Source: Spirochaetia bacterium (GTDB lineage Bacteria; Spirochaetota; Spirochaetia; CADAEX01). Taken from it: a DNA stretch of 64,000 nt. The position numbers were made by a program, and so were the translations under genes. Location: assembly GCA_963662795.1 (NCBI GenBank), contig OY759746.1, positions 1,440,001 through 1,504,000 of the forward strand. The letters run 5' to 3'. The first letter of the stretch is position 1. Every line of letters starts with the position of its first letter. Shown here piece by piece: positions 14,882-48,111 of this stretch. A model generated the notes under the pieces. It worked only from the letters and a program-made list of their open reading frames with translations, was not told where the DNA came from and did no database searches.

Positions 14882-14887
14882 AATAGT

Positions 14888-26854: not shown

Positions 26855-27994
26855 TTGAATATCGTAGTTGAGAATATTGTAAAAAATTCTTTAGGCAGAG
26901 GTATGATACAATTTGGATTTATTATTCTTAAAATAGTAAAAAATTTATCTATATATAATTTTGCCTATTACTTTTACCCAATTAATCCTCCTGAAAAGCC
27001 AGGCTATGTGACATCTGCCGGCAGAAAAGGAATCTCAGGATTTGCTATTGGAAGTGAAAAGGATGTCCCTTCAAAGATCGAACTTCTGGTTGACGGCAAC
27101 GTGATAAATACAACTTACGCTGCGCAGAAAATATATTCCCCTTCAAAATATTACGGTGAATTTACAGGATTTTATTTTCCGATGAAACATCTATGGAATT
27201 TAATTGATAAAAAACAAAAAATTGAAGTTTTAGCAGAAGGAAAACCTCTCAGATTCCGTGCCGGTAAAAATGGGGAAGCCGTGATTCCAAATTTGGGTAA
27301 ATTGGGAACGAATGAAAAAAAATCTGAAAAAAATATTATTGATTATATATCAGAAGGTAATTTGATTAATAAATTTGGACGATTACAGCCGCCAAGAAAT
27401 AAAAATATTGAATGGACTACAAAAGTATTATCATCTTTTATTTATGTTAATCAGTTGTTTGAGAAATATTTTAAAAAGCAGCTTTTCGTTTTTTACGGGG
27501 GGCTTCTCGGCTTTGCAAGAGAAGGTGGTATAATCTCTCATGACTGTGATATGGACCTTGCGTATTTCAGCGAGGAAACCGATGCTGACAAGGTCCGGGA
27601 TGAGTTTTATAGGATAGCGGAAAAACTGATAAGGGAGTGCAGTGATCTTGTTATTTCTGTGTCTAAAATTAATTTTACAAAAATGAAAGTAAGTATTACC
27701 CCTGCCTGGATAACCCCGGATGGTGATTTTGCATGCACCTTTGCCTATGTAGGCGATAAATTTAAAGTAACAAGGGAAGATATCCTGCCGCTTAAAAAGA
27801 CAGAGTATGAAGGTTATGAGTTAAACCTTCCCGCCAATCCTGTGAATGTTGTAAAATACCTTTACGGCAGAGGCTGGAAGTATCCTGACCCGGGGTGGAA
27901 ATGGCTGATTGAGTATAAGCTGCGACCGGCAATATTTAAAGCAAGACTTACAAGTTCTCAGGTTAAAAAATTAAACAAAATTATTTCTCAATAA
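26855..27994 (+). CDS. LicD-family phosphotransferase with extra N-terminal domain
   Basis: YGGLLGFAREGGIISHDCDMD, LYGRGWKYPD; AGGAG upstream of TTG start. Confidence 0.7.
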   Translation: MNIVVENIVKNSLGRGMIQFGFIILKIVKNLSIYNFAYYFYPINPPEKPGYVTSAGRKGISGFAIGSEKDVPSKIELLVDGNVINTTYAAQKIYSPSKYYGEFTGFYFPMKHLWNLIDKKQKIEVLAEGKPLRFRAGKNGEAVIPNLGKLGTNEKKSEKNIIDYISEGNLINKFGRLQPPRNKNIEWTTKVLSSFIYVNQLFEKYFKKQLFVFYGGLLGFAREGGIISHDCDMDLAYFSEETDADKVRDEFYRIAEKLIRECSDLVISVSKINFTKMKVSITPAWITPDGDFACTFAYVGDKFKVTREDILPLKKTEYEGYELNLPANPVNVVKYLYGRGWKYPDPGWKWLIEYKLRPAIFKARLTSSQVKKLNKIISQ

Positions 27995-29648: not shown

Positions 29649-30971
29649 ATGGCAGAGAATAAAAAAACCGTTTATGTCGGCATGAGCGCAGACCTTATTC
29701 ACCCAGGCCACCTCAATATATTAAAGCACGCCAGGGAGCTTGGTTCAGTGACGGTAGGCCTGCTTACAGACAAGGCCATCGCGAGCTATAAAAGGCTTCC
29801 CTACATGACCTTTGAGCAGAGAAAGCAGGTTATAGAAAATATAAAAGGGGTGGATTCTGTAGTGGCACAGGATACACTTGATTATGTCCCGAACCTTAAG
29901 CAGTATAAACCGGACTTTGTTGTCCACGGCGATGACTGGAGGGAGGGGGTCCAGAGGAAGACACGCCAGAGCGTTATTGATGCCTTATCACAGTGGGGTG
30001 GCGAGCTTGTTGAAGTTTCATACACTCCCGATATTTCATCGACAAGGCTCAATGACGGGCTTAAAAAAATGGGTACAACTCCGCAGAGAAGGCTCGGGAT
30101 GCTGCGCCGCCTGATAAACGCCAAACCTGTAGTTACATTCATGGAAGCGCACAGCGGCCTGAGCGGGCTGATAATCGAGAACATCAGTGAAAACGATGGA
30201 AAAGGTGTAAAAAAGGTTTTTGACGGAATCTGGCTTTCAAGCTTTACGAATTCCGCAAGCCGCGGAAAACCTGATATAGAAGCTGTCGATGTAACAGCGA
30301 GGATACAGACTTTAAATGAGATAATCGAGGTTACTACAAAACCTGTTATCTATGACGCGGGAAGCGGCGGCAGGGGAGAGCATTTCGGCTTTACCGTGAG
30401 GACCCTTGAGCGCTTCGGTGTTTCCGCCGCGGTAATTGAGGATAAGGCATCTTTTTCACGGAATGAGGGAAATCCTGAGAACGCGAACGCCGCAGGCGCC
30501 CTGGTTGATATAAATGAATTCTGCCGGAAAATTGAGGCCGGAAAAAAGTCCAGGGTAACGGATGATTTTATGGTAATTGCCAAGCTTGAAAGCCTTGTTT
30601 CCGGCATGGGAACAGGTGAGGCGATGAAAAGGGCCTCCGCGTATCTCGAGGCAGGGGCTGACGGGATACTTATTCACAGCCGCGGCAGTGACGGACGTGA
30701 CATACATGAGTTCTGCAGTAAATTCAGGGGTAAGGGACTTAAGGCCCCTCTTGCTGCAATGCCTACTTCCTATAACAGCGTTTATGAATCGGAACTGCAC
30801 GAAATGGGCATAAATATAATAATCCACGCCAATCATCTGATCAGGAGCGCATACCCCGCGATGACAAAAGCCGCGAAAATGGTTTTAAAATACGGGCGTT
30901 CATTCGAGTCGGATCAAATGACGGTACCGGTGGAGGAAATTTTATCTGTCATACCTGAAGGGGACTGGTAA
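29649..30971 (+). CDS. Cytidylyltransferase / phosphoenolpyruvate mutase-like fusion (mutase motifs degenerate)
   Basis: [14 protein letters not shown]; [27 protein letters not shown]. Confidence 0.85.
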
Positions 30972-31038: not shown

Positions 31039-32505
31039 ATGCTGATATTAAAAATAGCGCTCAGAAATCTTAAACGGCATACCCGGAAAACTCTGCTTAT
31101 AGGTGTTCTGATTACACTCGGGATGGCTTTTCTCTTTACCTCGAACGCGGTTTTTGAAAGCACCAACAGGGGGCTTAAAAGCTCATTTATCAGGAGCCTG
31201 ACCGGGGATGCTGTTATAAGCGCGCAGTCTGACGTCCCGTACGGCCTTTTCGGAGTTGAAATCCCGATAATAAGCTCATACGAGAATATACCGGCCCTTG
31301 CAGGATATGCTGAAATAAATGAGAGGCTTAAGGAAATCCCTGAAATCGCTGAAGGGAAATGGAGATGGACTCCCCTGGTTTCAGCTGCAGCCAGCCTTGA
31401 AATTGACAGTTTTCAGCTTGCAGTTCCGTTATTCGGTGTAGACCCTGAAAGCTATTTCAGCGTCTGTTCAGACATTAAAATCGAAAAAGGATCTCCCGGC
31501 TCACTTTCCGACGGCGGCATCTTTCTCAACACCCGGCTCGCTGAAAATATTGAGGCGGAACTCGGGCGGGCACTTGTTATTGGTGAACCTGTAACTCTCA
31601 GCATGTATTCGGATGGAAGTTTCCACATCAGAAAAGGGATTTTTTCAGGCATACACAGTTATATCAGCTATACAGAACCCCTTGGCCGCATTGTCCTTGC
31701 CGATGCCTCGATTGTAAGGGGCCTTGCCAATTACACTTCAGGGTATATAAGCGGAAAACAGGATGATGAAATCATTTCTGATGCAGGTTCCTTTGATATG
31801 GATGATCTTTTCTCGGAGTCTTTAGATACTGTATCAGCAGGCGATGAGGGAATAACCCCTGATGAGCTTGAAGAGATACTTTCCGATACAGGGCAGAGAA
31901 CAGCGCTTGTTGAGACAGATGCTGCGGCATGGAGTTTTATCCTGCTGAGCGCAGACAACGGCAGCCAGGGCCGTCTTTTGAGGGTAATTGAAAAGGAAGC
32001 TGAGGAAAATGAATGGGCGGTCCGGATCCTTAACTGGAGAAATGCCGCAGGGCTTGGGGCCCAGGCTGTTTTTGCGCTGCAGGCGGTCTTTTACAGCGGG
32101 ATGATATTTATAGTTTTCGGAGCGGTACTTGTAATCATGAACGCTCTTGTGATATCAGTTTTTGAGAGGATTCCTGAAATCGGAACCATGAGGGGGCTCG
32201 GTGCAGGCCGCCGTTTTATCAGTACCCTTTTTATAACAGAATCCATGATTCTTACAATGAGTGCTTCAGCCGCCGGAATCCTCCTTGGGATTATAATCTC
32301 GCAGATTACGCTTAAAACAGGCATAACAATTGAAAATGAACTTTTAATTACTCTTTTCGGCGGGAATGTCATCCGCCCGGAAGTAAGCCTTTCAGGTGTT
32401 GTAAAACATCTTGTCATGGCATCTCTTGCCGGTTCTGTCGCATGGATATATCCGGTATCTCTTGCGATGAGAATCCAGCCGGTTGAGATTATGGGGAAGG
32501 GCTGA
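31039..32505 (+). CDS. ABC transporter permease, FtsX/LolE family
   Basis: ALRNLKRH, ISVFERIPEIGTMRGLG. Confidence 0.88.
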   Translation: MLILKIALRNLKRHTRKTLLIGVLITLGMAFLFTSNAVFESTNRGLKSSFIRSLTGDAVISAQSDVPYGLFGVEIPIISSYENIPALAGYAEINERLKEIPEIAEGKWRWTPLVSAAASLEIDSFQLAVPLFGVDPESYFSVCSDIKIEKGSPGSLSDGGIFLNTRLAENIEAELGRALVIGEPVTLSMYSDGSFHIRKGIFSGIHSYISYTEPLGRIVLADASIVRGLANYTSGYISGKQDDEIISDAGSFDMDDLFSESLDTVSAGDEGITPDELEEILSDTGQRTALVETDAAAWSFILLSADNGSQGRLLRVIEKEAEENEWAVRILNWRNAAGLGAQAVFALQAVFYSGMIFIVFGAVLVIMNALVISVFERIPEIGTMRGLGAGRRFISTLFITESMILTMSASAAGILLGIIISQITLKTGITIENELLITLFGGNVIRPEVSLSGVVKHLVMASLAGSVAWIYPVSLAMRIQPVEIMGKG

Positions 32506-32507
32506 TC

Positions 32508-33800
32508 ATGATGACTTTATTTCTGGCGCTGCGAAATCTTTTCCTGCAGCGGAAAAGATACCTTCTTGTTGCCGTGGCTATAGCGGCCGGATTTGCCCTG
32601 GTTACTTTTCAGAGCGGTACTGCTTACGGCGCCATGGAAACAGTAATGGTTAAGGCGGCGCGCTATTTTTCAGGGCACGTGAGCATCTCAGGATACAGGA
32701 AAAAGGAAAATGCAATAGAAAATCCTGAAGCAATTATAAATGCCGTAAAGTCAGCGGGCCTTCCTGTAAGGACAGTCTCGAAAAGGACCATCTATGCGGG
32801 AAAAGAGGCAAGGCTATTCTTCGGAGGCAATTCAGTAAGGCTCAGGCGGCAGGTGGGATTTGATTTTGAGGGAGAAAGCGGAGAACTTGCAAGACTTCCC
32901 TTCACGGAAGGGGGGATTGAGGGGATGGCAGAAAGTGAAGGGCATAACGGCATAATTATAAGCCGTGCCGCTGCCAGGCTGCTTGGGGCCCATCTCGGCG
33001 ATGATGTCAGCTTTTATTTGACTGCGGATAACGGACAACACAATACGGCGACAATGATAGTCCGGGGGATCTTTGATGAGACAAGCATATTCGGTTACGC
33101 TACCTATATGCGAAACGATGACCTGAACGCGCTCCTGCAGAGGCCGGAAGGGGCAGCAACCGAGATAGCGGTTTATGCCAGGGAAGGGGTAAATATTGTA
33201 AAATTCGCGGAAAAAATAAGGACTCTCCTCGATAGTGAGCATTCCGTGTTTCCTCCGATACTGCGCCGTGATGATTTCCCGTCCAAAAGAAACAGAAATA
33301 CGGAAAATGAAACTTTTGCCGTAATGTCGCTTGATGCCCATCTTGATCAGATAAAAAATCTTCTTGATGCTTTTCTCGCCGGGTCATACTTTATTTTTGT
33401 TGTTTTTATGCTTATTGTGATGATTGGCGTTCTTAATACCTACAGGGTAATGGTTTATGAAAGGACAAGGGAAATCGGGACCATGCGGGCAATAGGAATG
33501 CAGAGGGGGCAGGTTAAGGCGCTTTTTCTCTATGAGGCAACCGGTCTTGTAACTTTATCCTCAGCCACTGGTTTTGTTATCGGGATTCTGCTTCTTTACG
33601 CGGCCGGTACAGTTGATTTAAGCGGGATAACCGCCTCGGCCCTTTTTACTGAGTCCGGACGGCTGAAATTTTATTTAAGTCCGGGTATTATTTTTACCAA
33701 CTTTCTGATTATGGCTTTTACAGTGCTGCTTGCGGCATGGGGGCCGGCAGACAGGGCCGGTAAAATGCCTCCGGCAGAGGCCCTTGGCAAAAACGGTTAA
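32508..33800 (+). CDS. ABC transporter permease, FtsX/LolE family
   Basis: ALRNLFLQ, ERTREIGTMRAIG, PADRAGKMPPAEAL. Confidence 0.88.
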   Translation: MMTLFLALRNLFLQRKRYLLVAVAIAAGFALVTFQSGTAYGAMETVMVKAARYFSGHVSISGYRKKENAIENPEAIINAVKSAGLPVRTVSKRTIYAGKEARLFFGGNSVRLRRQVGFDFEGESGELARLPFTEGGIEGMAESEGHNGIIISRAAARLLGAHLGDDVSFYLTADNGQHNTATMIVRGIFDETSIFGYATYMRNDDLNALLQRPEGAATEIAVYAREGVNIVKFAEKIRTLLDSEHSVFPPILRRDDFPSKRNRNTENETFAVMSLDAHLDQIKNLLDAFLAGSYFIFVVFMLIVMIGVLNTYRVMVYERTREIGTMRAIGMQRGQVKALFLYEATGLVTLSSATGFVIGILLLYAAGTVDLSGITASALFTESGRLKFYLSPGIIFTNFLIMAFTVLLAAWGPADRAGKMPPAEALGKNG

Positions 33801-33842
33801 GTGCGCCCTATGTCAAAATACAGGTTTTACGGAGTTTGTGCA

Positions 33843-34628
33843 GTGATAATAAAAAAATATTTTACGGTTCTGCTTTATTTTATTCTGGCTTCGGGCATGT
33901 TATGTGCCCAAACAATCGAAGATTATAAAAAGCTGCTTAAAAAGGTAGATGCCAATGTTACTTTTAATAAATCGGATTTATCGGCTGAATATACAATAGT
34001 TAAAAGGGACCCCGGCGGGTCTACCTCAACAACAGTGGCGGCCATGTTCAGGCGGGATAAAACAGACCAGTTTCTTATCCTTGTTCTTGAGCCTGTTTCT
34101 GACAAGGGGAAGGGCTACCTCAAAATCGGGGACAACCTGTGGCTTTATGACCCTGTCGGGCGGAGTTTTACCTTTACAAGCGCAAGGGAGAGGTTTCAGA
34201 ATTCAAGCGCGAGAAATTCCGATTTCAACAGGTCGAATTTTTCAAATGACTACCGCCCTGTCTCAGGCAGGAGAGAAAAACTTGGCCGTTTTGAGTGCAC
34301 CGTCCTTGAGCTTGAAGCTGTAAATACAAGTGTTTCTTTCCCGAAAATGATTATATGGGTATCAGATAACGATAACCTTGTAAGGAAGATTGAGGATTAC
34401 AGCCTTTCGGGACAGCTGATGAGAACTACCGCGGTACCCAGTTATCAGAAAGTCGGGAATCTCTGGGTCCCCCAGGCCCTTGTTATACTTGATCACCTTA
34501 ATTCAAAAGTCATATCCGGAAAGACCGAGTATGAACGGACAACCATTACAATAAAAAATCCTTCAGTTGCGGATATTCCTGATTCAGTCTATACAAAAGA
34601 ATATCTTGAAAAGGTAAATACCAGATGA
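33843..34628 (+). CDS. Outer-membrane lipoprotein-sorting (LolA-like) protein
   Basis: Signal peptide; EPVSDKGKGYLKIGDNLWLYDP; GTG at 33843 has GGAG 8 nt upstream (ORF track start 33801). Confidence 0.75.
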   Translation: MIIKKYFTVLLYFILASGMLCAQTIEDYKKLLKKVDANVTFNKSDLSAEYTIVKRDPGGSTSTTVAAMFRRDKTDQFLILVLEPVSDKGKGYLKIGDNLWLYDPVGRSFTFTSARERFQNSSARNSDFNRSNFSNDYRPVSGRREKLGRFECTVLELEAVNTSVSFPKMIIWVSDNDNLVRKIEDYSLSGQLMRTTAVPSYQKVGNLWVPQALVILDHLNSKVISGKTEYERTTITIKNPSVADIPDSVYTKEYLEKVNTR

Positions 34629-35827
34629 ATTTCAGGAAAAATGCCTCATTTATAAAGCTGCCGGCTTTACTGCTCTGCGGCTTTTTGTTTTTTTACCCGT
34701 CTGCCTTGTACTCACAGGAAGCGGAGTCAAGTTCGGACCTGGATTCCCTTTTTGAGGATGCCCCTGAGGATATTGTGGCAGAGGATACACAGACCGACCA
34801 CCTGACCCAGTTTCAGGAAACCGAGAAAATGAAGGTAAGCGGCAATTTTACCGCTAAGGGAGGCGCGGCCTTCGGCTGGGAAAGCCTTCCTGAAAGCGGC
34901 GGGAGTCTTACTGACGGGCTTGGGTTTACTCCGGGGGCACGATCGCTTGCGAGACTGACTTTTGATTCAAGACCCAGCACGGTGTTCAGTATGTACGGCA
35001 GCTTTTATACGGAAATTGACCCTTCAGAAGGGGAGAACAACTGGTCGGAACCTGTTATTGATGAGCTTTTCAGCGATTACAATTGGCTTGACAAAGCCTT
35101 TATCAGGATGGGAAAGCACAGGGTAACCTGGGGACAGGGGCGTATATATACCCCCGGTGATCTTATGTCCGCAAGTGAAGACGGCGCTACATTCAGGGTA
35201 AGTATGCCTACCCTTCTTGACGGTGTCTCGTTTGTCTCTTTGCTTGATGAAAGTTTTATCGGCGAAGATGAATCGTTATCCGCATACGATCTTGCTTATG
35301 GAGTACTTGCTGACAAGATATTCGGCGGCATAAGGCTTTCCGCAGGAACCCGCTGGCAGAGAGATCTTGGGTTTACTTCACTTGTTTCTTTTAAAAAAGT
35401 TTTATGGAAAACCGATCTGCTTTCGGATTTTATCCTTCATTACAATGATGATGAAATTGATTTTGAGACGCTTGCCGGTTTTTTCAGGGAATGGCCGCAG
35501 TATAAACTATACGGTGAATACTATTTTAACGGAAGAACAGAATCATGTGATGACCATAACATAGGCCTTGCCGGCACATATAAGAATATTTTCTCGACTC
35601 CGCTTGATTTCGGAATTGAGTGGCTTCATGCTTTCATGAATGATTCGGGGCGTCTTACAACCGGCGTTTCCTGGAAACCGTGGAAACTGGTTACTGCAAG
35701 TATCGGGGTACCTTTTTTCTACGGTAACTATGAAAACAGGTATGAAGAGGATGATGATGATGTGAACCTTCTCTCTGAAAGAAAGCTGTCGTTCGCCTTT
35801 TTTCTTGAGCTATCTTCCTCTTTTTAA
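34625..35827 (+). CDS. Putative outer-membrane beta-barrel protein
   Basis: Signal peptide, RMGKHRVTWGQG, beta-strand pattern, terminal Phe. Confidence 0.6.
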   Translation: MNFRKNASFIKLPALLLCGFLFFYPSALYSQEAESSSDLDSLFEDAPEDIVAEDTQTDHLTQFQETEKMKVSGNFTAKGGAAFGWESLPESGGSLTDGLGFTPGARSLARLTFDSRPSTVFSMYGSFYTEIDPSEGENNWSEPVIDELFSDYNWLDKAFIRMGKHRVTWGQGRIYTPGDLMSASEDGATFRVSMPTLLDGVSFVSLLDESFIGEDESLSAYDLAYGVLADKIFGGIRLSAGTRWQRDLGFTSLVSFKKVLWKTDLLSDFILHYNDDEIDFETLAGFFREWPQYKLYGEYYFNGRTESCDDHNIGLAGTYKNIFSTPLDFGIEWLHAFMNDSGRLTTGVSWKPWKLVTASIGVPFFYGNYENRYEEDDDDVNLLSERKLSFAFFLELSSSF

Positions 35828-36528
35828 GGACTCTGCCTTATGTTTTCCGCCACAAGACCGTCCTTCAGCCTGATGATGTGGTCAGCTATTGAGAAGATAT
35901 TCTGGTCATGTGTTGAAAATATAAAGGTTGTGTGCAGGGTGCTGTTTATCCTCTTCATAAGCCCGATTATTTCTTCGCCGGTTTTACTGTCAAGGTTAGC
36001 TGTAGGTTCATCCGCGAGAACTATCTGAGGTTTTGTTACAAGAGCCCTGGCAATGGCCACCCTCTGTCTCTGTCCGCCCGAGAGTTCATTCGGCCTGTGG
36101 TTCTTCCATTTCGTAAGGCCTACTGATTCTATCAGGTGATCAATATACTCTGTTTCAGATGATCTGCCGGATTCTGATTTTTTCCTTTTTCCCAGCAGCA
36201 GCGGGAATTCAATATTCTCAAAAACATTCAGCACGGGAAGAAGGTTGAAAGACTGAAATATAAATCCTATATATTTATGCCTGAGTTTGGTAATTTCACG
36301 GTCGGAGAGAGAGCCTGTCTGGAGGCTGTTTACTGTCACGGTGCCTGATGTCGGGACATCAATGCAGCCTATCATATTCAGTATTGTTGATTTTCCCGAA
36401 CCGGAAGGACCGATTATCGAGATAAAATCCCCTTTTTCTATTTCAAAAGAGATTCCGTTGACTGCTGTTACTTCGGTTTTTCCAAGGGGATAGGTTTTCC
36501 TTACATCCTTAAGCCTTACTATAGCCAT
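35824..36528 (-). CDS. ABC transporter ATP-binding protein (LolD/MacB-like)
   Basis: GPSGSGKS, LSGGQRQRVAIARAL, LADEPTANLD, STHD. Confidence 0.95.
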   Translation of the reverse strand: MAIVRLKDVRKTYPLGKTEVTAVNGISFEIEKGDFISIIGPSGSGKSTILNMIGCIDVPTSGTVTVNSLQTGSLSDREITKLRHKYIGFIFQSFNLLPVLNVFENIEFPLLLGKRKKSESGRSSETEYIDHLIESVGLTKWKNHRPNELSGGQRQRVAIARALVTKPQIVLADEPTANLDSKTGEEIIGLMKRINSTLHTTFIFSTHDQNIFSIADHIIRLKDGLVAENIRQSP

Positions 36529-38769: not shown

Positions 38770-39816
38770 TTAATCAGGGAAATTATAGGGATTGAGCAGT
38801 GATGATGCCCTGCTTCCTGATATTTCAACTTCAAGTGTATTGTCCGGCCCTGATGATAAATTGGGGGAAATCAGCATTGGAAGTGAGTCAGCATAACGGA
38901 TTTTGTATCTATGATTGTGTCCGGTTATAATTAACCGGATGTCATGTTTTTTATAAAATTCTATGGCTTCATCATAATCAGCAAACTCATCATCTACCGG
39001 ATGATGCTGTACGGCAAAAACATTTTTACCCTTTTTTTCGGCATTATAAAGTATATTATCAGCCCATTTTATTGTATCCCCGGAAATGTGTCCGTCAGGC
39101 GGAGTAACCCTGAATGGAAAACCCCTGTTTCTTTTCCATTGGGCTGTATCGAGACATAGAAGAACAAGACCCGGCAGGGGCTCAACAGCATAAGACAGGG
39201 AGGTTTTATCCCTTGAAAATGCTTCTCTGTAACCGAATTCGCCGTAAATCTCTGAAAAATCTTTTGCTGAAATATTTTTTGCGTGCCTGGGTTTGTTTTT
39301 AAGAAACTGAAGCCCTTTGGAATTTTTTACATCGTGGTTTCCCGGAACAACATAGGCCTGTATCCCTGATTTTTCGAAATCAAGCAGGATCTCCGCAAGC
39401 AGTATATGGCTTGCCTTGTCTCCGTTTACAGTAAGGTCCCCAGGTATGACAATGAAGTCTGCCTCAGAACCTGCAGCCCTATCAAGGGCAAATCTGGTAT
39501 TCTCAAAGTTATCATCAAATACTTTTTTTGTTATTTTAAGGTAACTGTTCCATGCCTGGTAATCATTTACAAGTGTGTCAGAGTCATACCCGTGCAGATC
39601 GCCGAGTACTGTCATTGTGAAATCACGGTTTCCCGGTTTTATGCGAAAAATATATGGATTGCCTGTTATGTCTTCTGCTTCTGATATGTAAGTGTAGTCT
39701 TCCAGCGGTGTTTTTACAGAAGCGCATGAAAAAGATATTACGGACAATATTGACAGTATAATTGCTGAAAAAAACAATCTGTTGCTTTTTCTCAGGTACT
39801 CGGTATTTTCAGACAT
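38770..39816 (-). CDS. Calcineurin-like metallophosphoesterase, probable lipoprotein
   Basis: ISFSC lipobox; GDLH, GDL, GNHD, HH, GHNH. Confidence 0.85.
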   Translation of the reverse strand: MSENTEYLRKSNRLFFSAIILSILSVISFSCASVKTPLEDYTYISEAEDITGNPYIFRIKPGNRDFTMTVLGDLHGYDSDTLVNDYQAWNSYLKITKKVFDDNFENTRFALDRAAGSEADFIVIPGDLTVNGDKASHILLAEILLDFEKSGIQAYVVPGNHDVKNSKGLQFLKNKPRHAKNISAKDFSEIYGEFGYREAFSRDKTSLSYAVEPLPGLVLLCLDTAQWKRNRGFPFRVTPPDGHISGDTIKWADNILYNAEKKGKNVFAVQHHPVDDEFADYDEAIEFYKKHDIRLIITGHNHRYKIRYADSLPMLISPNLSSGPDNTLEVEISGSRASSLLNPYNFPD

Positions 39817-39888: not shown

Positions 39889-41211
39889 ATGAAAATTGCT
39901 GTTATCGGAACAGGATATGTAGGACTGGTTTCCGGCGCGTGTTTCGCGGAATTCGGCTGGGACGTTACATGCATTGATAAAAATACGGAAAGGATAACTT
40001 CCCTTGAAAAAGGGGTCATGCCGATATATGAACCGGGACTTGAAGCGCTTGTAATTAAAAACACATCCGCGGGAAGGCTTTCTTTTTCTCTTGAATACGC
40101 GCCGCATGTTGAAAATGCCGATATCGTGTTCATTGCTGTCGGGACTCCTGAAAGAAGGGGCGGGGGCTACGCTGATCTTACCTATGTTTATCAGGCAGCG
40201 GCCGAAATAGCTCATCACCTGAAAGGATATACTGTAATAGTTGATAAAAGCACTGTTCCTGTAGGAACTGCGAGAAATGTGGAAAGGATAATAAGAGAGC
40301 AAAATCCTGAAGCTGATTTTGATGTGGCATCAAATCCCGAATTCCTCCGTGAAGGGTCCGCGATCGGGGATTTCATGAGGCCGGACCGGGTTGTTCTGGG
40401 CGCTGAAAGCGATAAGGCGAAGGAAATGCTTAAAGAACTTTACAGGCCGCTTTTCCTTCTTGAGACGCCGATGCTTATAACCGGCCTTGAAACCGCGGAA
40501 CTTATAAAATACGCGAGCAACTCGTTTCTTGCGGCAAAGATTTCTTTTATTAATGAAATCGCGAACCTCTGCGAAAAGGTGGGGGCGGATGTCAAGGATG
40601 TTTCCCGCGGAATGGGACTTGATAAAAGGATAGGCTCTAAATTTCTTCATGCAGGCCCCGGATACGGCGGCTCCTGCTTTCCAAAGGATGTTTCAGCTCT
40701 TGTCAAAATATTCCACGATAACGGTATGACGGGCCGTATCCTTGAGGCTGTCGTCAATGTGAATAATTCCCAGAAATCCCTTATGGTAGGCAAAATCAGA
40801 TTTGCACTCGGAGGCAGTGAATACGGAAAAACAATCGCCATACTGGGGCTCACTTTTAAACCCGAAACAGATGACATGAGGGAGGCACCCGCGCTAACCA
40901 TAATTCCCGCGCTTCTTGACGGAGGGGCGAAAATTAGCGCGGCTGACCCGGCAGGGATAAACGAGGCAAAAAGACTTCTTCCTGAAGGGATCTCATATTT
41001 TGATGATGCCTATGAGGCCTGCAGGGGAGCGGATGCCGTTGTTCTTCTTACCGAGTGGAATCAGTACAGGGCCCTAAACTTTAAAAAGCTTAAAGATTTG
41101 ATGACTGGAAGGATTTTCATTGATCTTAGAAATGTATTTAATTCCATGATTCTGAAGAACGCAGGATTTGATTATTTCTGTGTCGGGCATGGTGAGAGGG
41201 TTCAGGAGTAG
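39889..41211 (+). CDS. ugd: UDP-glucose 6-dehydrogenase
   Basis: GTGYVG, KSTVPVGT, NPEFLREG, GYGGSCFPKD, FKPETDDMRE. Confidence 0.95.
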   Translation: MKIAVIGTGYVGLVSGACFAEFGWDVTCIDKNTERITSLEKGVMPIYEPGLEALVIKNTSAGRLSFSLEYAPHVENADIVFIAVGTPERRGGGYADLTYVYQAAAEIAHHLKGYTVIVDKSTVPVGTARNVERIIREQNPEADFDVASNPEFLREGSAIGDFMRPDRVVLGAESDKAKEMLKELYRPLFLLETPMLITGLETAELIKYASNSFLAAKISFINEIANLCEKVGADVKDVSRGMGLDKRIGSKFLHAGPGYGGSCFPKDVSALVKIFHDNGMTGRILEAVVNVNNSQKSLMVGKIRFALGGSEYGKTIAILGLTFKPETDDMREAPALTIIPALLDGGAKISAADPAGINEAKRLLPEGISYFDDAYEACRGADAVVLLTEWNQYRALNFKKLKDLMTGRIFIDLRNVFNSMILKNAGFDYFCVGHGERVQE

Positions 41212-41213
41212 GG

Positions 41214-43997
41214 ATGCTGGATTTTTTTTATACACTGTTTATTTTTCCGATTGAAACTGTAATCAGTGTTTTTTACTGGTTATTTCTGCAGATGTTTGAA
41301 ATACACGGGATCGCCATCATCTGCCTGAGCGTTACCGTAAATATTATACTTCTTCCGCTCTACAATGTCGCCGAAAGGTGGCAGCAGAGGGAAAGGAATA
41401 TCCAGGCTCATCTTAAAAATAAACTTGATGATATAAGGGCCGTATTTAAGGGCGCAGAGCGTCACATGATAATAAGGACATATTACCGGCAGAACCACTA
41501 TCATCCATTTTATTCTTTAAGAAATGTGATAGGGCTTGCAATACAGATCCCCTTTTTTATAGCGGCATATCATTTTTTAAGCCATATGCCGATGTCAGCA
41601 AAAACCAGTTCATATTATTTTATTAAAGATCTCATGCGCCCTGACGCGTTATTGACTGTTTCAGGCCTTTCCATAAATCTGCTTCCCGTAGTCATGACTG
41701 TGATAAACCTTGTTTCCGCGTTTGTTTATTCCGGCAAGCTTCAGAAAAAGGAAAAAAACCAGCTTTTTATAATGGCGCTGCTCTTTCTTGTACTTCTTTA
41801 TAATTCTCCGGCCGGGCTTGTCCTTTACTGGACAATGAATAATGTGATATCCCTGATCAAGAATATTATAAACTCAGGCCGGAATCCCAGGAAGTATTTT
41901 TATATTACTCTTGCTGGTTTTGCAGCTTTCATGTTTGTTTACTCCCTGTTGTTGAGATATCCCCTGTTCATGAGACTGGCCGGCCTTGATGGGTTTGTTT
42001 TTAAGGCAAAAAAAATACGGCAGATAAATATAATTACAGGAAGTTTTTTTGCTTTTGTTTTATTGTTTCCGGTATTTTCAAAATTTATCCATAAAGCAGT
42101 TGAAAATATATTTTCAGGATTAAAGAATTCCCTAAAGGACGGAACAGCTGTTTTTGCGTTATCGTGCATAATATTGTTTATGCTGACAGGCCTTGTTGCC
42201 CCTTCATTTCTGATTTCAGGTTCTCCGCTTGAGTTTGCGGAAGTTATCTCCGGCGGCAACTATAACCCCTCCTGGGCAATAGTTAAATCTGCACTGCAGG
42301 CCTTTTCCCTGTTTATTTTTATTCCTTCTGTAATTTATATCCTTTTCTCCAGGGATGTAAAAAAATACCTGATCCTTTTATCTTTCCTTTTTGCGGTGAC
42401 GGCTCTTGTAAACATTTTTATCTTTTCCGGCTCCTACGGGGTAATCAGTCCGGATTTTACATTTGATAATTCACAGATACTGAAGCCTGAAGTGTATCAG
42501 GTTTTTCTTAACTTTTCTGGAATAGTATCTGCTGCGGCTCTAAGCGTTTTCTTAATTAAAAAAAAATATTATAAAATTATAAACAATTTATTAATTATAA
42601 TAATAATTTCACTTGCAAGTATTTCTGCTTTTAATATACATAAAATCAATTCAGAATTTCGCCACATGCTTTCCTATAATTCTGTTTTGACTTTTGAGGA
42701 AAAAAATCAAAAATCCAAGAATATTTTTACTTTATCAAAAAAAGGAGAAAATGTTTTTGTTATAATGTTGGACAGGGCCCTTGGCGGACTGATGGGTGAG
42801 GTTTTAAACCATAATCCTGAGTTTCTGGAGCAAATGACGGGTTTTGTCTGGTATCCAAATACAGTTTCTTTTAACGGACATACCCTGCTGGGCGCACCGC
42901 CTCTTTTCGGCGGTTATGAATATACGCCAGTTGAAATGAATAAACGTGATAAATTGCCGCTTGTAGATAAGCATAATGAAGCTCTTCTCGTAATGCCTCG
43001 TATTTTTCTTGAAAGTGGATATGAAGTTAAAGTTACAGATCCGAGTAATGCCAACTATTCTGAAATACCGGATCTCAGTATTTTTAAGGAGTATCCCGGC
43101 ATAAAGGCAGAATTAATTGTCGGTAAATTCACCTCAGACTGGATTAATGAAAATATTAAAGATGATTCAAATAGTAACATTTCAGAAGTATTGAATGAAT
43201 ATCTTCTAAATTTCAGTATTTTCAGAATAGCACCTAATTTCCTTCGAAGCAGAATTTATGACAGCTCCAGATGGTTAAAGCCTGTTAAGGCAAACCTTCC
43301 TCTTAGGTTCATAGACAGTTATTCTATTCTTGATTATCTCCCCAGGATAACAGGGTTTGATGCGGAAAAAAATACTTTCAATATGACTGTTAATTATACA
43401 ATTCATGAACCCAGAATACTTAATATATACTTACCTGAAGAGTTCAGAAGTACTCTGTCAGAAGATTTCAACTATAAAACTTCAATTCAGGACAGCTATA
43501 CGCTTAAACATTTTTATACTCAGATTGGGGCATTTCAAAAACTATGTAAATGGTTTAATTATTTAAAAGAGAATAATGTTTATTCCAATACAAAGATAAT
43601 AATCGTTTCAGATCACGGCCGTCGTGATATAGTCGATCCGTTTTTTATTAACTTTTCAGATGATAATAAACTAACAAATAATTATACATATTATCATCCT
43701 TTACTGCTTGTAAAAGAATTTAATGCAGAAGGAAAACTAAAAATCTCTGATGACTTTATGACAAACGCAGATGTTCCATCAATTGCTGTTTCACATCTGG
43801 ATAATGGAGTTAATCCGTTTACAGGCAACCCAATTAAAGGTGAACAGAAGAAGGACGGAGTGGATATTGTAACAGTTCATACCTGGAAAGAAGATCTTAA
43901 CTACAGTAAATATAAATTCAAATTTTCAGATAAAGATATTATTCATGTAAAAAATAATATTTTCATAAAAGAGAACTGGACTGGGATTATTAAATGA
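41214..43997 (+). CDS. YidC-like domain fused to membrane linker and sulfatase/LTA-synthase-fold domain
   Basis: N-term IQIPFFIAAY, PAGLVLYWTMNN; C-term IMLDRA, GHTLLG, IHEP, VSDHG. Confidence 0.8.
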   Translation: MLDFFYTLFIFPIETVISVFYWLFLQMFEIHGIAIICLSVTVNIILLPLYNVAERWQQRERNIQAHLKNKLDDIRAVFKGAERHMIIRTYYRQNHYHPFYSLRNVIGLAIQIPFFIAAYHFLSHMPMSAKTSSYYFIKDLMRPDALLTVSGLSINLLPVVMTVINLVSAFVYSGKLQKKEKNQLFIMALLFLVLLYNSPAGLVLYWTMNNVISLIKNIINSGRNPRKYFYITLAGFAAFMFVYSLLLRYPLFMRLAGLDGFVFKAKKIRQINIITGSFFAFVLLFPVFSKFIHKAVENIFSGLKNSLKDGTAVFALSCIILFMLTGLVAPSFLISGSPLEFAEVISGGNYNPSWAIVKSALQAFSLFIFIPSVIYILFSRDVKKYLILLSFLFAVTALVNIFIFSGSYGVISPDFTFDNSQILKPEVYQVFLNFSGIVSAAALSVFLIKKKYYKIINNLLIIIIISLASISAFNIHKINSEFRHMLSYNSVLTFEEKNQKSKNIFTLSKKGENVFVIMLDRALGGLMGEVLNHNPEFLEQMTGFVWYPNTVSFNGHTLLGAPPLFGGYEYTPVEMNKRDKLPLVDKHNEALLVMPRIFLESGYEVKVTDPSNANYSEIPDLSIFKEYPGIKAELIVGKFTSDWINENIKDDSNSNISEVLNEYLLNFSIFRIAPNFLRSRIYDSSRWLKPVKANLPLRFIDSYSILDYLPRITGFDAEKNTFNMTVNYTIHEPRILNIYLPEEFRSTLSEDFNYKTSIQDSYTLKHFYTQIGAFQKLCKWFNYLKENNVYSNTKIIIVSDHGRRDIVDPFFINFSDDNKLTNNYTYYHPLLLVKEFNAEGKLKISDDFMTNADVPSIAVSHLDNGVNPFTGNPIKGEQKKDGVDIVTVHTWKEDLNYSKYKFKFSDKDIIHVKNNIFIKENWTGIIK

Positions 43998-45280
43998 AAT
44001 TCCAATTTTACATCTTTTATTTTATTTTTATCAACACGTTTCTTGTACAGGCTTATATAGATCCGGGTACAGGGAGCATGCTGTTTGCCGTGCTGACCGG
44101 AATAATCTCAACTCTTTTCTTTGCCGGAAAAACACTGTTTATAAGACTGAAGACTTTGCCGTTCTGGTATAAAAAAGATAAAACAGCAGTTTCCGGAGCA
44201 GAAAGAAAGAAATATGTTTTTTATTCTGAAGGAAAGCAGTACTGGAATGTCTTTAAACCTGTTATTGATGAATTCATCAGGCGTAAACTTTCATGCAGTT
44301 ATTATACATCGGATAAGGAAGACCCGGGCCTTGAAGTCTCATCTGAATTTGTTAAACCGGAGTTTATCGGGAGAGGTAATATGGCCTATTCAAAACTGAA
44401 TATGCTTGAGACTGATATCTGTGTTATGACAACTCCCGGTCTTGATGTTTACCAGCTTGAAAGATCTAAAGGGGTAAAGCATTACAGCCATATACTCCAT
44501 GCGGTAGACGATACTACCCTCTATAAACTTTTCAGTTTTGATTATTATGATTCCATGTTTCTTTCAGGGGAATATCAGAAAGAAAGCATCAGGGAGCTTG
44601 AGGCTAAAAGGGGAACAAAAGAGAAAGACCTGTATGTCACAGGCAGCACATATCTTGATGTTCTCTCATCAAAAGTAAAAACGCTTGATGTAAAGAGAAA
44701 AAATGATGTGATAACTGTTCTCGTATCTCCATCATGGGGAGACAATTCTCTTTTAAAAAAATTCGGACTTAAACTGCTTCTTCCATTGGTTAAGTCAGAA
44801 ATGCGTGTAATATTAAGGCCGCATCCGCAGTCGTCCATTTCTGAAACAGAATTGCTTGATAATATAAAAGAAGGTCTTAAGGATTTTAAAAATGTTGAAT
44901 GGGATTTTTCGCGGGAGAACATAACGTCAATGGCAAGATCTGATATAATGATTTCAGATTTTTCCGGAATTATGTCTGATTACCTGTTTCTTTTTTCAAA
45001 ACCTGTTATCTATACGAGTTATGAATTTGATAAAAGAGGTTATGACTTAAGCGATGTCGAAGGAATCCCCTGGAAATTCAGAATGCTGAAAGAAGCGGCA
45101 GTTGAAATCGGTGAAGAAAATTTTAATGATGTTTCAGCAATAATCAAAAAAACACTTGCCAGCGATGTTGTTTCCAGAAAAATTGAGGAAGCTAAAAACA
45201 CTGCATGGTTCTATCAGGGAAAAGCAGGCGAAAAATGCGCCGATGCGCTTGAAAGTATTCATTCAAACCTTGAAAATTGA
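43994..45280 (+). CDS. CDP-glycerol:glycerophosphotransferase-like with YIDPGTGS-TM anchor, paralog of 15567..16892
   Basis: MTTPGLD, SPSWG, LRPHPQS, ISDFSG. Confidence 0.8.
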   Translation: MKFQFYIFYFIFINTFLVQAYIDPGTGSMLFAVLTGIISTLFFAGKTLFIRLKTLPFWYKKDKTAVSGAERKKYVFYSEGKQYWNVFKPVIDEFIRRKLSCSYYTSDKEDPGLEVSSEFVKPEFIGRGNMAYSKLNMLETDICVMTTPGLDVYQLERSKGVKHYSHILHAVDDTTLYKLFSFDYYDSMFLSGEYQKESIRELEAKRGTKEKDLYVTGSTYLDVLSSKVKTLDVKRKNDVITVLVSPSWGDNSLLKKFGLKLLLPLVKSEMRVILRPHPQSSISETELLDNIKEGLKDFKNVEWDFSRENITSMARSDIMISDFSGIMSDYLFLFSKPVIYTSYEFDKRGYDLSDVEGIPWKFRMLKEAAVEIGEENFNDVSAIIKKTLASDVVSRKIEEAKNTAWFYQGKAGEKCADALESIHSNLEN

Positions 45281-45304
45281 TTCATCGGAACGGGAGGCGG
45301 TAAA

Positions 45305-45787
45305 TTGAAATATGACAGATGTGTAGTAAACGGCGTATTTGATCTTTTTCATGTAGGGCACGTGAGGCTGCTGCAGAGGGCAAAGGAGATGTTCAAAGAA
45401 GTCGTTGTAACAATCGATTCAGATGAACTTACAATGAAAGAAAAAAGAAGACCGATATTTAATCAGGATGAACGGCTTGAAATAGTAAAGGCATGCAGGT
45501 ACGCCGATGACGCTCTTATTATCGACCGTTCGTGGGGGCCGCACGCGGTTGACCCTGCAATGGTTGATGACTTCATGAACAAGTACAATGTAGATGCTGC
45601 TTTTGTCGCGGCTGACGATGAGGAATATGTTAAATACTGGTTCGGGCATTTGCACAGCCAGGGGCGGGTGGTAATTGTCCCGAGGACAAAATACATATCA
45701 ACAACGCATGTGATAAAGATCGTAAACGGTGAAATTGTAAAGGAAGAAAAAGTGAACCTGCTTAACGGCGGCGGACAGGGTAAATGA
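45305..45787 (+). CDS. Cytidylyltransferase (TagD-like HxGH family)
   Basis: GVFDLFHVGH, PRTKYISTT; GGAGG upstream of TTG. Confidence 0.82.
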   Translation: MKYDRCVVNGVFDLFHVGHVRLLQRAKEMFKEVVVTIDSDELTMKEKRRPIFNQDERLEIVKACRYADDALIIDRSWGPHAVDPAMVDDFMNKYNVDAAFVAADDEEYVKYWFGHLHSQGRVVIVPRTKYISTTHVIKIVNGEIVKEEKVNLLNGGGQGK

Positions 45788-46818
45788 AAAAAATTCTTGT
45801 GACAGGGGGATGCGGTTTTATAGGCTTTCACCTTGTAAGGGAGCTTGCGGGAGGTGATTTTAAAATTACCGCGCTTGATTCCATTAACAGCTATTATGAT
45901 CAGGAACTGAAATACCGCAGGCTTGAAGAACTTGGTATCCGAAAAAGCGATATAGCGGATAACAAAATGCTCAAATCAAAGCTTTTTTCGGATGTTGAAT
46001 TCATCAAACTTGATACGGCTGAGAAGGAAGAGCTGGATAATCTGTTTAAGGAAAAAAAATTTGATATTGTATGCCATCTTGCCGCCCAGGCCGGGGTACA
46101 GTATTCGCTGGTCAATCCGCAGTCGTATATTGACAGCAATATAACGGGGTTTTTGAATGTTCTTGAATCCTGCAGAACATACGGCCCCCGAAAACTTGTT
46201 TATGCGAGCAGTTCGAGCGTTTACGGCAATAATGTCAAGCAGCCGTTTGCGGAATCCGACAGGACCGACAGCCCTGTGAGTATGTACGCGGCAAGCAAGA
46301 AATGCAACGAGCTTATGGCCGGAGTCTACAATTCCCTTTACGGACTTAAGTCCGTCGGATTGAGGTTTTTTACGGTTTACGGCCCCTGGGGAAGACCTGA
46401 TATGGCCTATTTCAAGTTTGTCAGGAAGATTTTAAACGGAGAGCCGATTGAGGTTTACAATAACGGAGTAATGAAGAGGGATTTTACATATATCGACGAT
46501 ATTACCGAAGGGCTTAAGAGAGTTATTACTTCCTTTGCCGAAAGCGGTGAGGATGTAAAATCAGAAATTTACAATATCGGCAGGGGCAAGCCAGAAGACC
46601 TCGTATCGTTTATTGAAACTATTGAGAAAAACCTTGAAGTCAGGGCTGAAAAAAAATATATGCCATTCCAGATCGGAGATGTGGAAGAAACCTTTGCCGA
46701 TGTTTCGCTGCTTGAGAAAGATTACGGCTATAAACCCCATGTTGACCTTGAAGAAGGGATCAGGGAGTTTGTGAAATGGTATAAGGCCTGGAATTCCTCA
46801 GGCAAACCTTTCTTTTAA
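45784..46818 (+). CDS. UDP-glucuronate 4-epimerase
   Basis: GGCGFIG, HLAAQAGV, YASSSSVYG, YAASK, FFTVYGPWGRPDMA. Confidence 0.9.
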   Translation: MKKILVTGGCGFIGFHLVRELAGGDFKITALDSINSYYDQELKYRRLEELGIRKSDIADNKMLKSKLFSDVEFIKLDTAEKEELDNLFKEKKFDIVCHLAAQAGVQYSLVNPQSYIDSNITGFLNVLESCRTYGPRKLVYASSSSVYGNNVKQPFAESDRTDSPVSMYAASKKCNELMAGVYNSLYGLKSVGLRFFTVYGPWGRPDMAYFKFVRKILNGEPIEVYNNGVMKRDFTYIDDITEGLKRVITSFAESGEDVKSEIYNIGRGKPEDLVSFIETIEKNLEVRAEKKYMPFQIGDVEETFADVSLLEKDYGYKPHVDLEEGIREFVKWYKAWNSSGKPFF

Positions 46819-48111
46819 AAACTTTTTCAGCGCTTCATCGGAATTATCAATTAAAACTGATTCCTTTTTTAAGTTTAAAAGCTTTTCAAGCTGTGCCGGG
46901 AGCGGAGGGTTTTTACCTGTAGCTTTTTCAACTACCTCGAGAAACTTTCCGGGGTGGGCAGTGGACAGGGTTACAACCGCAGTCGCCCCGCTCCTGCCCG
47001 GCAGGGTTTTAATATATCTTTTTGCCGCCGTATAACCCACAGCAGTGTGCGGATCAATAAACCTTTTTTTCTTTTCATAAAAATCCCTTACAGCTTCAAT
47101 TGTCTCATCATCATCTACCCATTCCCCTGTTATCATTTCACCCATCTTTTTGTAATCATCCCTGAAAATATCCTTAAGCCTCTCGAAGTTGCTTGGGTTG
47201 CCGACATCCATGGCATTTGAATATGTCAGAACTGATGGCCGGGGAGTGTAAATTCCTGACTCAAGATATTCGGGCACTTCCCTGTTAAGGTTTGTCGCTG
47301 CGATAAACTTTGTTACGGGAAGGCCCCACCTGGCGGCAAGTACGCCTGCAGTGAGATCTCCGAAATTCCCGCTTGGAACAGAGAAAACAATATCGCTGTA
47401 TCTGTCTTTGAGCTGGTTAACCGCCCAGACATAATAAAACGACTGCGGAAACAGTCTTCCGAGGCTTATGGAGTTTGCGGATGTCAGAGGAAGGGCTGAG
47501 AGTTCGTCGCTTACAAATGCGTCCTTTACCATCCTCTGGCAGTCGTCGAAAGAGCCTTTTACCTCAAGCGCTGTTACATTGCCGCCGAGGGTTGTAAGCT
47601 GTTTTTCCTGGAGAGGGCTTACCCTTCCGGAAGGATAAAGTATTACTACCTCGATATTGTTTCTTTTGTGAAAAGCCTGGGCGACAGCGCTTCCCGTGTC
47701 TCCGGATGTCGCGGTAAGGATTATTGCTTTCCTCTCCTCGTCTTTCAGAAACTCTTCCATGGCGGCGGCAAGAAAGGACGCCCCGAAATCTTTAAAAGCG
47801 CATGACGGGCCGTGATAAAGCTCAAGAATAAACATGTTTTCATCGGCAGATGTCAGTTCCGGTTTAAAGGGAAAAGCTTTCCTGCATACGCTTTCCGCCC
47901 TGTCCGGTGTCAAATCGTCTTTAAGGACAACAGAGGACAGAGCTGATGAGGACTCAATAAAAGAAGTTTTACTGTCCATTGATTTGAATAGATCTGACAG
48001 GTCAGGGTATTCGGCGGGGTTGTACAGCCCTCCGTCAGGCGCAAGCCCCTGAAATACCGCTTCGCGGAAACTTACCATGTTTTCCCTGTTTCTTGTGCTG
48101 TAGAATTTCAT
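46798..48111 (-). CDS. thrC: Threonine synthase
   Basis: GLAPDGGL, HGPSCAFKD, ATSGDTG, VPSGNFG, STAHPGKF. Confidence 0.95.
   Translation of the reverse strand: MKFYSTRNRENMVSFREAVFQGLAPDGGLYNPAEYPDLSDLFKSMDSKTSFIESSSALSSVVLKDDLTPDRAESVCRKAFPFKPELTSADENMFILELYHGPSCAFKDFGASFLAAAMEEFLKDEERKAIILTATSGDTGSAVAQAFHKRNNIEVVILYPSGRVSPLQEKQLTTLGGNVTALEVKGSFDDCQRMVKDAFVSDELSALPLTSANSISLGRLFPQSFYYVWAVNQLKDRYSDIVFSVPSGNFGDLTAGVLAARWGLPVTKFIAATNLNREVPEYLESGIYTPRPSVLTYSNAMDVGNPSNFERLKDIFRDDYKKMGEMITGEWVDDDETIEAVRDFYEKKKRFIDPHTAVGYTAAKRYIKTLPGRSGATAVVTLSTAHPGKFLEVVEKATGKNPPLPAQLEKLLNLKKESVLIDNSDEALKKFLKERFA

Follow-up and report, generated by a model that had tools for sequence, protein, structure and literature searches.

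Why would a fold known from membrane protein insertases be joined, in one polypeptide, to an outward-facing domain of the alkaline phosphatase superfamily, and be encoded next to a TagF-like phosphotransferase and a cytidylyltransferase? The question is raised by positions 41214-45787 of a 64,000-nucleotide stretch of the genome of a Spirochaetia bacterium (assembly GCA_963662795.1, contig OY759746.1, positions 1,440,001 to 1,504,000 of the forward strand), hereafter the window, to which all coordinates refer unless a locus or genome handle precedes them. A sequence-only reading had seen in these genes a relay in which a cytidine diphosphate (CDP)-polyol is loaded onto a lipid carrier, passed across the membrane by a repurposed YidC fold and transferred to a surface glycan. 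We conclude that the genes belong to a module that is real, widespread and at present mis-annotated, with good support from context for a general role in decorating the envelope with phospho-head groups. With a probability of about 0.5, we read it as a conserved membrane machine of three parts that attaches small head groups, linked through phosphate or phosphonate, to glycoconjugates of the envelope. The earlier relay interpretation is partly supported by our results; its lipid carrier and its flipping by the YidC fold can only be inferred, and the fold may serve a transmembrane step other than insertion.

The three genes and their conservation

The gene calls agree with the earlier description of three adjacent and co-oriented genes, with the following features.

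41214-43997, plus strand: 927-residue fusion protein, predicted to comprise a YidC-like core, seven helices and an outward alkaline-phosphatase-superfamily domain (Pfam, AlphaFold2 model, Foldseek)
41214-41879, plus strand: YidC/Oxa1-like five-helix core of the fusion, residues 1-222 (PF02096, 80.6 bits against a cut-off of 35, residues 32-219)
41895-42635, plus strand: seven further predicted transmembrane helices of the fusion, about residues 228-474 (model and sequence)
42711-43997, plus strand: LtaS/EptA/PbgA-type alkaline-phosphatase-fold domain of the fusion (Foldseek; D520, T557, H731, D800, H801)
43994-45280, plus strand: membrane-anchored TagB/F-fold phosphotransferase, 428 residues (PF04464, model, fold match)
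44054-44077, plus strand: motif Y-I-D-P-G-T-G-S of the phosphotransferase, residues 21-28, directly ahead of its single anchor helix
45305-45787, plus strand: HxGH cytidylyltransferase, 160 residues, TTG start (PF01467, 70.3 bits)

The start of the TagF-like gene overlaps the stop of the fusion gene by 4 bases. Proteins with this architecture are common: the fusion measures 873-962 residues in 117 of the best 120 matches in the protein collection, and matches to its outer domain comprise 830 cluster representatives (50% clustering, E ≤ 1e-30), of which 150 were listed, 111 of these being at least 800 residues long with the outer domain at the C-terminal end. Relatives are encoded on at least 586 stretches of species-representative genomes, mostly of Treponema and other Spirochaetota metagenome-assembled genomes (MAGs). 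Where databases give the family members a name at all, it is 'membrane protein insertase YidC', 'YidC/Oxa1 family membrane protein insertase', 'membrane protein' or 'hypothetical protein', and this naming as YidC insertase or hypothetical makes the current annotation misleading.

Gene neighbourhoods were compared in 76 related loci, with our own calls of open reading frames (ORFs) and single-linkage BLAST clustering (891 ORFs kept). They hold 123 genes of the fusion family, frequently as tandem paralogues, and 60 TagF-like genes in 55 loci; a TagF-like gene lies no more than two genes away from 66 of the 106 complete fusion genes. Of 401 evenly sampled Spirochaetota genomes, 72 have the outer domain and 83 the TagF-like protein; 69 have both and 315 neither. 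The co-occurrence across genomes on which the relay would depend is therefore strong, since 69 of the 72 genomes with the outer domain also carry the TagF-like protein. A stricter cut of 1e-60, chosen after the data had been seen, separates the anchored TagF-like type from generic TagF relatives and leaves 71 strong carriers, 66 of which have the fusion. The other five (G233, G313, G322, G394, G400) have instead an adjacent triad: a 230-residue YidC-like protein, the TagF-like protein and one to three 600-residue outer enzymes of the split type described below.

Three to four tandem fusion paralogues stand beside one TagF-like gene at several places (L012, L024, L026, L060 and G347:C1:1813676-1825359), which suggests diversified acceptor or cargo specificity. 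Some fusion and TagF-like copies are interrupted by in-frame stops (TAA, TAG and TGA; G215:C1:1319094-1320918, G219:C72:3435-4675, G085:C1:842513-843751) and are probably pseudogenes or assembly errors. A spirochaete-type fusion is also present on contigs L065, L017, L023 and L075 (G401-G404), from MAGs labelled Butyrivibrio, Prevotella, Clostridiales and Paratractidigestivibacter. Of 400 further genomes from the phylum to which G401, the Butyrivibrio-labelled MAG, belongs, none has a YidC-like match at E ≤ 1e-30, a cut-off that may miss divergent forms, so these contigs may be transfers or mis-binned.

A split copy of the module

The sequence-only reading had also held that the components of the first two genes recur as separate genes at 13148-16892. 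Genes matching PF00884, PF02096 and PF04464 are indeed found there, although by BLASTP the outer enzyme is no close paralogue of that in the fusion.

13148-14881, plus strand: split outer enzyme, polytopic, with a predicted outward sulfatase-family domain, 577 residues (PF00884, 29.5 bits)
14888-15580, plus strand: stand-alone YidC-like core, 230 residues, S at the groove position (PF02096, 85.7 bits)
15567-16892, plus strand: second TagF-like transferase, 441 residues, with the motif YLDPGSGS (PF04464, 53.4 bits)

The stand-alone core shares 42% identity with its fused counterpart and 26% with the housekeeping YidC of the same genome, and the two TagF-like proteins are 39-40% identical. Between the split and the fused outer enzymes, BLASTP finds no significant similarity beyond a DHG motif. 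Orthologues of the split outer enzyme (40-46% identity) adjoin YidC-like and TagF-like genes in all five genomes examined. That two outer-enzyme lineages unrelated by BLASTP keep the same two partners is a strong sign of a functional unit.

The order of the genes varies, being outer enzyme, YidC-like, TagF-like in the split copy of the window and YidC-like, TagF-like, outer enzyme in G313, G322, G394 and G400. That one copy of the window arose from the other simply by fission or fusion of genes was considered and is ruled out by their dissimilar outer enzymes and differing gene order.

The gene directly downstream (16889-19225, plus strand) begins before the second TagF-like gene has ended. 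It encodes a polytopic protein of 778 residues that matches neither Pfam nor NCBIfam models and may be an additional membrane part of the split system.

A YidC-like core without its positive groove residue

The YidC/Oxa1-like nature first proposed for the N-terminus of the 927-residue protein is borne out by the PF02096 match, and a profile of the fusion family aligns with E. coli YidC at 6.9e-9. Compared with the NCBIfam YidC equivalogs, the core lies below every cut-off, mostly far below (TIGR03592, 83.8 against 84.3). The separate housekeeping yidC assumed by the earlier reading exists. It is the strongest (214 bits) of three PF02096 matches in the genome and encodes 586 residues with a periplasmic P1 domain; it sits between yidD and jag, at a locus apart from the fusion (L001).

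The difference from insertases is sharpest in the hydrophilic groove. The arginine of E. coli YidC (R366) aligns with a threonine in the family consensus, and this column holds T in 65, N in 28, S in 23 and a gap in one of 117 members (116/117 T, N or S). No member has a lysine or arginine anywhere in the groove helix (0/117). In the fusion of the window the residue is N43, while the genome's own YidC has a lysine; five paralogue-type sequences have N or S there. The loss of the positive residue argues against the core being an ordinary insertase, and the invariance of many other core positions argues that its fold is under strong selection for something.

E. coli YidC and other Oxa1-family proteins are described as scrambling lipids in vitro and in simulations (10.1101/2023.09.01.555937), and YidC is termed a scramblase in PMC11997395.

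Membrane helices and the outer domain

The AlphaFold2 model of the fusion, built with 117 homologues, has a predicted local distance difference test score (pLDDT) of 89.1 and a predicted template-modelling score (pTM) of 0.79. Its seven helices beyond the core span residues 225-246, 265-299, 307-336, 353-377, 380-403, 427-449 and 453-497. Read from the sequence, the loops from helix 8 of 12 onwards are alternately net-negative and net-positive, and the positive ones would be cytoplasmic if the catalytic domain is outward. The C-terminal end of the YidC core is cytoplasmic, as is established for the family. The loop 249-270 (41958-42023), which adjoins the core, carries a net charge of +4 and yet is predicted outside, in contradiction to the positive-inside rule; this region is rich in indels across the fusion family. 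Overall, the predicted topology places the alkaline-phosphatase domain outside and the TagF-like domain inside, in keeping with the earlier reading.

Pfam hardly recognizes the C-terminal domain of this protein (PF01663, sub-threshold, 16.9 bits against a cut-off of 23), and PF00884 is recorded for a part of its homologues and for 30-41% of the members of the Atlas clusters. By fold, Foldseek matches it to PbgA, EptA, LtaP/LtaS and MCR-1 with a probability of 1.00 (E-values of 4.1e-8 for 6xlp, 7.2e-7 for 5fgn, 9.3e-7 for 4uop and 1.8e-6 for 4uor; also 9nww), followed by sulfatases and phosphonate monoester hydrolases. All 117 homologues in the alignment (117/117) have D520, T557, H731, D800 and H801; by the order of the motifs, rather than by a residue-level superposition, these residues may correspond to the catalytic residues of LtaS and EptA. 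The additional helices and the alkaline-phosphatase-superfamily domain noted at the outset are thereby confirmed, the quoted motifs being present with invariant key residues.

The anchored TagF-like transferase

The second gene had been described as CDP-polyol phosphotransferase-like. The transferase part stands: PF04464 is matched at 34 bits (cut-off 22.1), over residues 203-347 only, and the model (pLDDT 89.4) is of GT-B fold, with TagF as its best fold match (3l7m, 3.7e-12, TM-score 0.56). A profile of the family reaches Cps3D (8qoy) at 3.3e-6, in an alignment that spans the PSWG, RPHPQ and SDFSG motifs. The equivalog NF041712 (TarF) scores 15.1 bits against a cut-off of 550, and the polyol donor is not established.

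What sets the family apart is its N-terminus. Y21, D23, P24, G25, G27 and S28 of the YxDPGxGS motif are invariant in 49 of 49 sequences, and the motif is followed by one hydrophobic helix and then by a lysine-rich stretch. Such an order points to a catalytic domain in the cytoplasm and a short tail that is N-out. The motif is preceded by 4-12 residues in 46 of the 49 sequences and by 19-24 in the gene studied here, its paralogue in the window and the orthologue in L004, these three having an additional hydrophobic segment that resembles a signal peptide. If this segment is cleaved, the mature N-terminal end would be the same as in the other sequences. An independent small protein made of the motif and helix was not found with this query, which gave six matches among ten shorter candidates; three of these were read, all being truncated forms of the TagF-like protein.

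Activation genes and the nature of the cargo

The third gene is an HxGH cytidylyltransferase, as had been read from its sequence. It scores 67.1 bits with the glycerol-3-phosphate model TIGR01518 (cut-off 165.4) and matches structures of the ethanolamine-phosphate enzyme ECT (3elb, 5.2e-18), the glycerol-3-phosphate enzyme TagD (1coz, 9.7e-16) and the choline-phosphate enzyme CCT (3hl4, 2.5e-14) about equally well, so that a polyol substrate cannot be assigned. The CDP-polyol of the original proposal is thus not established, all the more because the cargo genes vary between related loci, and we write the donor as CDP-X.

Related loci carry phosphonate, amino-alcohol and choline-type genes. A nucleotidyltransferase fused to a CobD-like (phospho-amino-acid) decarboxylase is found in 22 loci, in 19 of which it directly adjoins the fusion or the TagF-like gene. 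An aminoethylphosphonate pathway occurs in 14 loci and consists of a phosphoenolpyruvate (PEP) mutase-cytidylyltransferase, a phosphonopyruvate decarboxylase and a transaminase-nucleotidyltransferase (TIGR03301, 365 bits, over the cut-off). Nucleotidyltransferase-choline-kinase fusions are present in five loci, mostly further off, a cytidylyltransferase-oxidoreductase fusion in L063, and the small TagD-like enzyme in this window and L004. This variety of activation genes makes the module look cargo-swappable, with head groups activated by CDP or cytidine monophosphate (CMP) and used mostly as terminal substituents.

The window itself holds a cytidylyltransferase-PEP mutase fusion (29649-30971, plus strand; PF01467 and PF13714; TIGR02320, 317.3 bits against 319.55), which may supply phosphonate cargo to the upstream split triad. 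A phosphonopyruvate decarboxylase was not recognized among the window ORFs run against Pfam. The PEP mutase fusion shares a large glycan locus with the split triad, LicD-like genes and a canonical TarF-like gene. The latter is full-length (25643-26845, plus strand; PF04464, 229 bits), and the two LicD-family genes (20192-20977 and 26855-27994, both plus strand) are weak matches. With these genes, the genome has several phospho-substituent routes.

A model for head-group transfer and its alternatives

In the reading that we favour, the decoration of envelope glycoconjugates by a three-part machine would proceed in four steps. A cytoplasmic cytidylyltransferase would make a CDP- or CMP-linked head group, in this window CDP-X, where family-level homology would allow X to be glycerol, ethanolamine or choline. 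The TagF-fold enzyme, tethered to the cytoplasmic side of the membrane through its single N-out helix, would then move X-phosphate onto a membrane-bound acceptor; the enzyme's fold is modelled and its topology predicted, the acceptor being postulated. Aided by the YidC-like core, which lacks the groove arginine, the X-phosphate product would cross the membrane, the core acting as a conduit for a lipid or head group or as a holder of its partner's helix. Lastly, the outward LtaS/EptA-type domain, with its invariant threonine and metal site, would hand X-phosphate to a surface glycan or glycolipid through a phospho-threonine intermediate. The fold of this domain is modelled and its residues are conserved, and its chemistry is proposed by analogy: LtaS and EptA work via such an intermediate, using bulk lipids.

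A number of observations weigh against this reading. No TagF-like gene is found in 21 of the 76 loci, many of them on short contigs, and it is missing despite long flanks in L033, L039, L041, L054 and L074. Three genomes of the even sample (G392, G279 and, weakly, G231) show the outer domain but no TagF-like match, related genomes are non-independent samples, and the late choice of the cut for strong TagF-like matches counts here as well. A cargo-type gene lies no more than three genes away in just 34 of the 76 loci, with L004 and L063 in addition. The best fold match of the outer domain, PbgA, is not known to be an enzyme. Finally, the acceptor, the carrier and the membrane-crossing step rest on inference.

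The part of the YidC-like core can be conceived in two ways. By analogy with scrambling, the core is the obvious candidate for the crossing step. We hold only tentatively that its fold might have been repurposed as a dedicated translocator of a phospho-head-group carrier, this carrier being either lipid-linked X-phosphate or the YxDPGxGS tail of the TagF-like enzyme itself. In the latter variant, the tail would act as a covalent carrier swinging through the arginine-less groove and delivering its group to the LtaS-like domain.

The second, which is the main rival and similarly doubtful, is that the core is a dedicated insertase, an assembly chaperone or a permanent dock for the TagF-like anchor and for its own seven helices, holding inner and outer enzymes in one complex while head groups cross on an ordinary lipid. 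In 46 of 49 sequences the TagF-like anchor consists of a short N-out tail and one helix, and substrates of this class, such as the Pf3 coat protein, are inserted by YidC alone. The invariance of the tail motif (49/49) would be expected of a protein contact, and the core occurs either in fusion with the outer enzyme or as a separate protein encoded next to both partners. However, the positive groove residue, which captures acidic tails in Gram-positive YidC, is missing in 117 of 117 family members; a normal YidC that could insert the anchor is available in the genome; and it would be left unexplained why this pair of enzymes alone needs a private insertase.

It is improbable that the module makes a polymer akin to lipoteichoic acid, in which the TagF-like enzyme would prime a glycolipid with glycerol phosphate inside and the LtaS-like domain would extend it outside from bulk phospholipid. 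In its favour, the outer domain resembles LtaS and LtaP in fold, a search of this genome (98% complete) found no LpxC, and the cytidylyltransferase is compatible with CDP-glycerol, as its match to TagD indicates. Teichoic-acid-like glycolipids have been reported for oral treponemes. In most related loci, however, the cargo is aminoethylphosphonate, an amino-alcohol phosphate or of choline type, and such groups can only be terminal substituents because they lack a second hydroxyl for chain growth. A bulk-lipid donor also fails to explain the strict coupling to a CDP-dependent enzyme.

Equally unlikely are two parallel enzymes, neighbours through a shared cargo supply, of which the TagF-like one would decorate lipid-linked repeat units inside and the fusion another target outside, from phospholipids of the same CDP-X pool: this would suit the excess of fusion over TagF-like genes (123 to 60 in the 76 loci) and the distance of some fusion genes from any TagF-like gene, but no CDP-alcohol phosphatidyltransferase was identified in any recurrent cluster (about twenty of the commonest were given to Pfam, two having no match), and among the 71 strong carriers the anchored TagF-like family always has a YidC-like and an outer-enzyme partner.

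If the three-part machine exists as we favour, spirochaetes of the gut, the rumen and the environment would possess a general and cargo-swappable route for charged or zwitterionic surface groups, among them phosphocholine-like groups, amino-alcohol phosphates, aminoethylphosphonate and glycerol phosphate. Surface groups of this kind influence how the immune system recognizes a cell, how well the cell resists cationic peptides and how phages adsorb to it. The Oxa1/YidC fold of the machine would moreover be the first to work within a small-molecule or lipid pathway, and would offer a natural and genetically tractable test case for the lipid scrambling that insertases perform in vitro.

Comparison with known systems

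At fold level, the parts of the module belong to the TagF, LtaS/EptA and YidC families, and none of them reaches an equivalog cut-off. A description of the module was not found in the literature searched; supplements outside this search may hold neighbourhood tables.

The layout of the fusion, a membrane domain followed by an outward catalytic domain, is shared with LtaS/LtaP, GacH, OpgB (MdoB), EptA/MCR-1 and PbgA/YejM. With LtaS-type enzymes it further shares its fold, and a threonine and Asp/His residues of metal-site type are invariant in the fusion family; likeness in sequence to LtaS is very weak (family profile, E 0.024). The membrane domains of LtaS-type enzymes have about five helices, and these enzymes draw on bulk phosphatidylglycerol or phosphatidylethanolamine. 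The fusion differs from them by its N-terminal YidC core and seven helices and by its genomic tie to a CDP-dependent cytoplasmic transferase.

The TagF-like protein has the GT-B fold and the PF04464 match in common with TagB, TagF, TarF, TarL and TagF-like capsule polymerases, among which Cps3D aligns with it over the PSWG, RPHPQ and SDFSG motifs. Unlike these enzymes, it has a single N-out helix, an invariant YxDPGxGS tail and varied genes for CDP- or CMP-linked donors. The five-helix core is common to YidC/Oxa1/SpoIIIJ insertases (PF02096, E. coli YidC structures), from which the YidC-like core departs in having neither the periplasmic P1 domain nor the positive groove residue and in being fused or adjacent to envelope-tailoring enzymes.

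The proposed logic of loading on a membrane carrier inside, flipping, and transfer outside is alike in GtrA/B/C and ArnC/E/F/T. No part is homologous, however, and the group moved would be a phospho-head group instead of a sugar. Genuine Gtr/Arn-type sets, with a DegT aminotransferase, a GT2 glycosyltransferase, a half-size EamA pair and GtrII, are also present in loci of the module (L032:1484-4262; L046:14729-16459).

The Lic pathway (LicA/C/D) and PntC likewise employ head groups activated by cytidylylation, and fusions of this kind adjoin the module. The transferase here differs in being TagF-like with a YidC-fused outer partner. Rice et al. 2019 (PMC6697681) connect nucleotidyltransferase phosphonate genes with transferases of LicD-like type and with glycans of the cell wall. 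The main text of that article, its supplements lying outside the look-up, has no occurrence of the words YidC, sulfatase, TagF or glycerophosphotransferase.

The putative operon, the possible acceptor and neighbouring genes

In the ORF list of the window, the module is part of a tight array of five same-strand genes (ugd, fusion, TagF-like, cytidylyltransferase, epimerase), of which the first and last are the following.

39889-41211, plus strand: ugd, UDP-glucose/GDP-mannose dehydrogenase (PF03721, PF00984, PF03720), first gene of the putative operon
45784-46818, plus strand: NAD-dependent sugar-nucleotide epimerase/dehydratase (PF01370, 190 bits), final gene of the putative operon

The start of the epimerase gene and the stop of the cytidylyltransferase gene have 4 bases in common. 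Ahead of ugd is a promoter-like site (39750-39778), and a terminator-like site lies past the epimerase gene (46992-47006), both as consensus matches only. As uronic-acid genes of the same operon, ugd and the epimerase gene probably help to build the acceptor glycan. The ugd family is present in 20 of the 76 related loci, in which Wzi, initiating sugar transferases and many glycosyltransferases are also found. Because LpxC was not found, the target is more likely a capsule-like polysaccharide or a glycolipid than lipopolysaccharide.

Between the glycan clusters of the window, positions 31039-36528 encode two FtsX-type permeases, a LolA-like protein, an unassigned 400-residue ORF product and, on the minus strand, an ABC ATPase, which together look like a Lol-like set for lipoprotein or lipid export.

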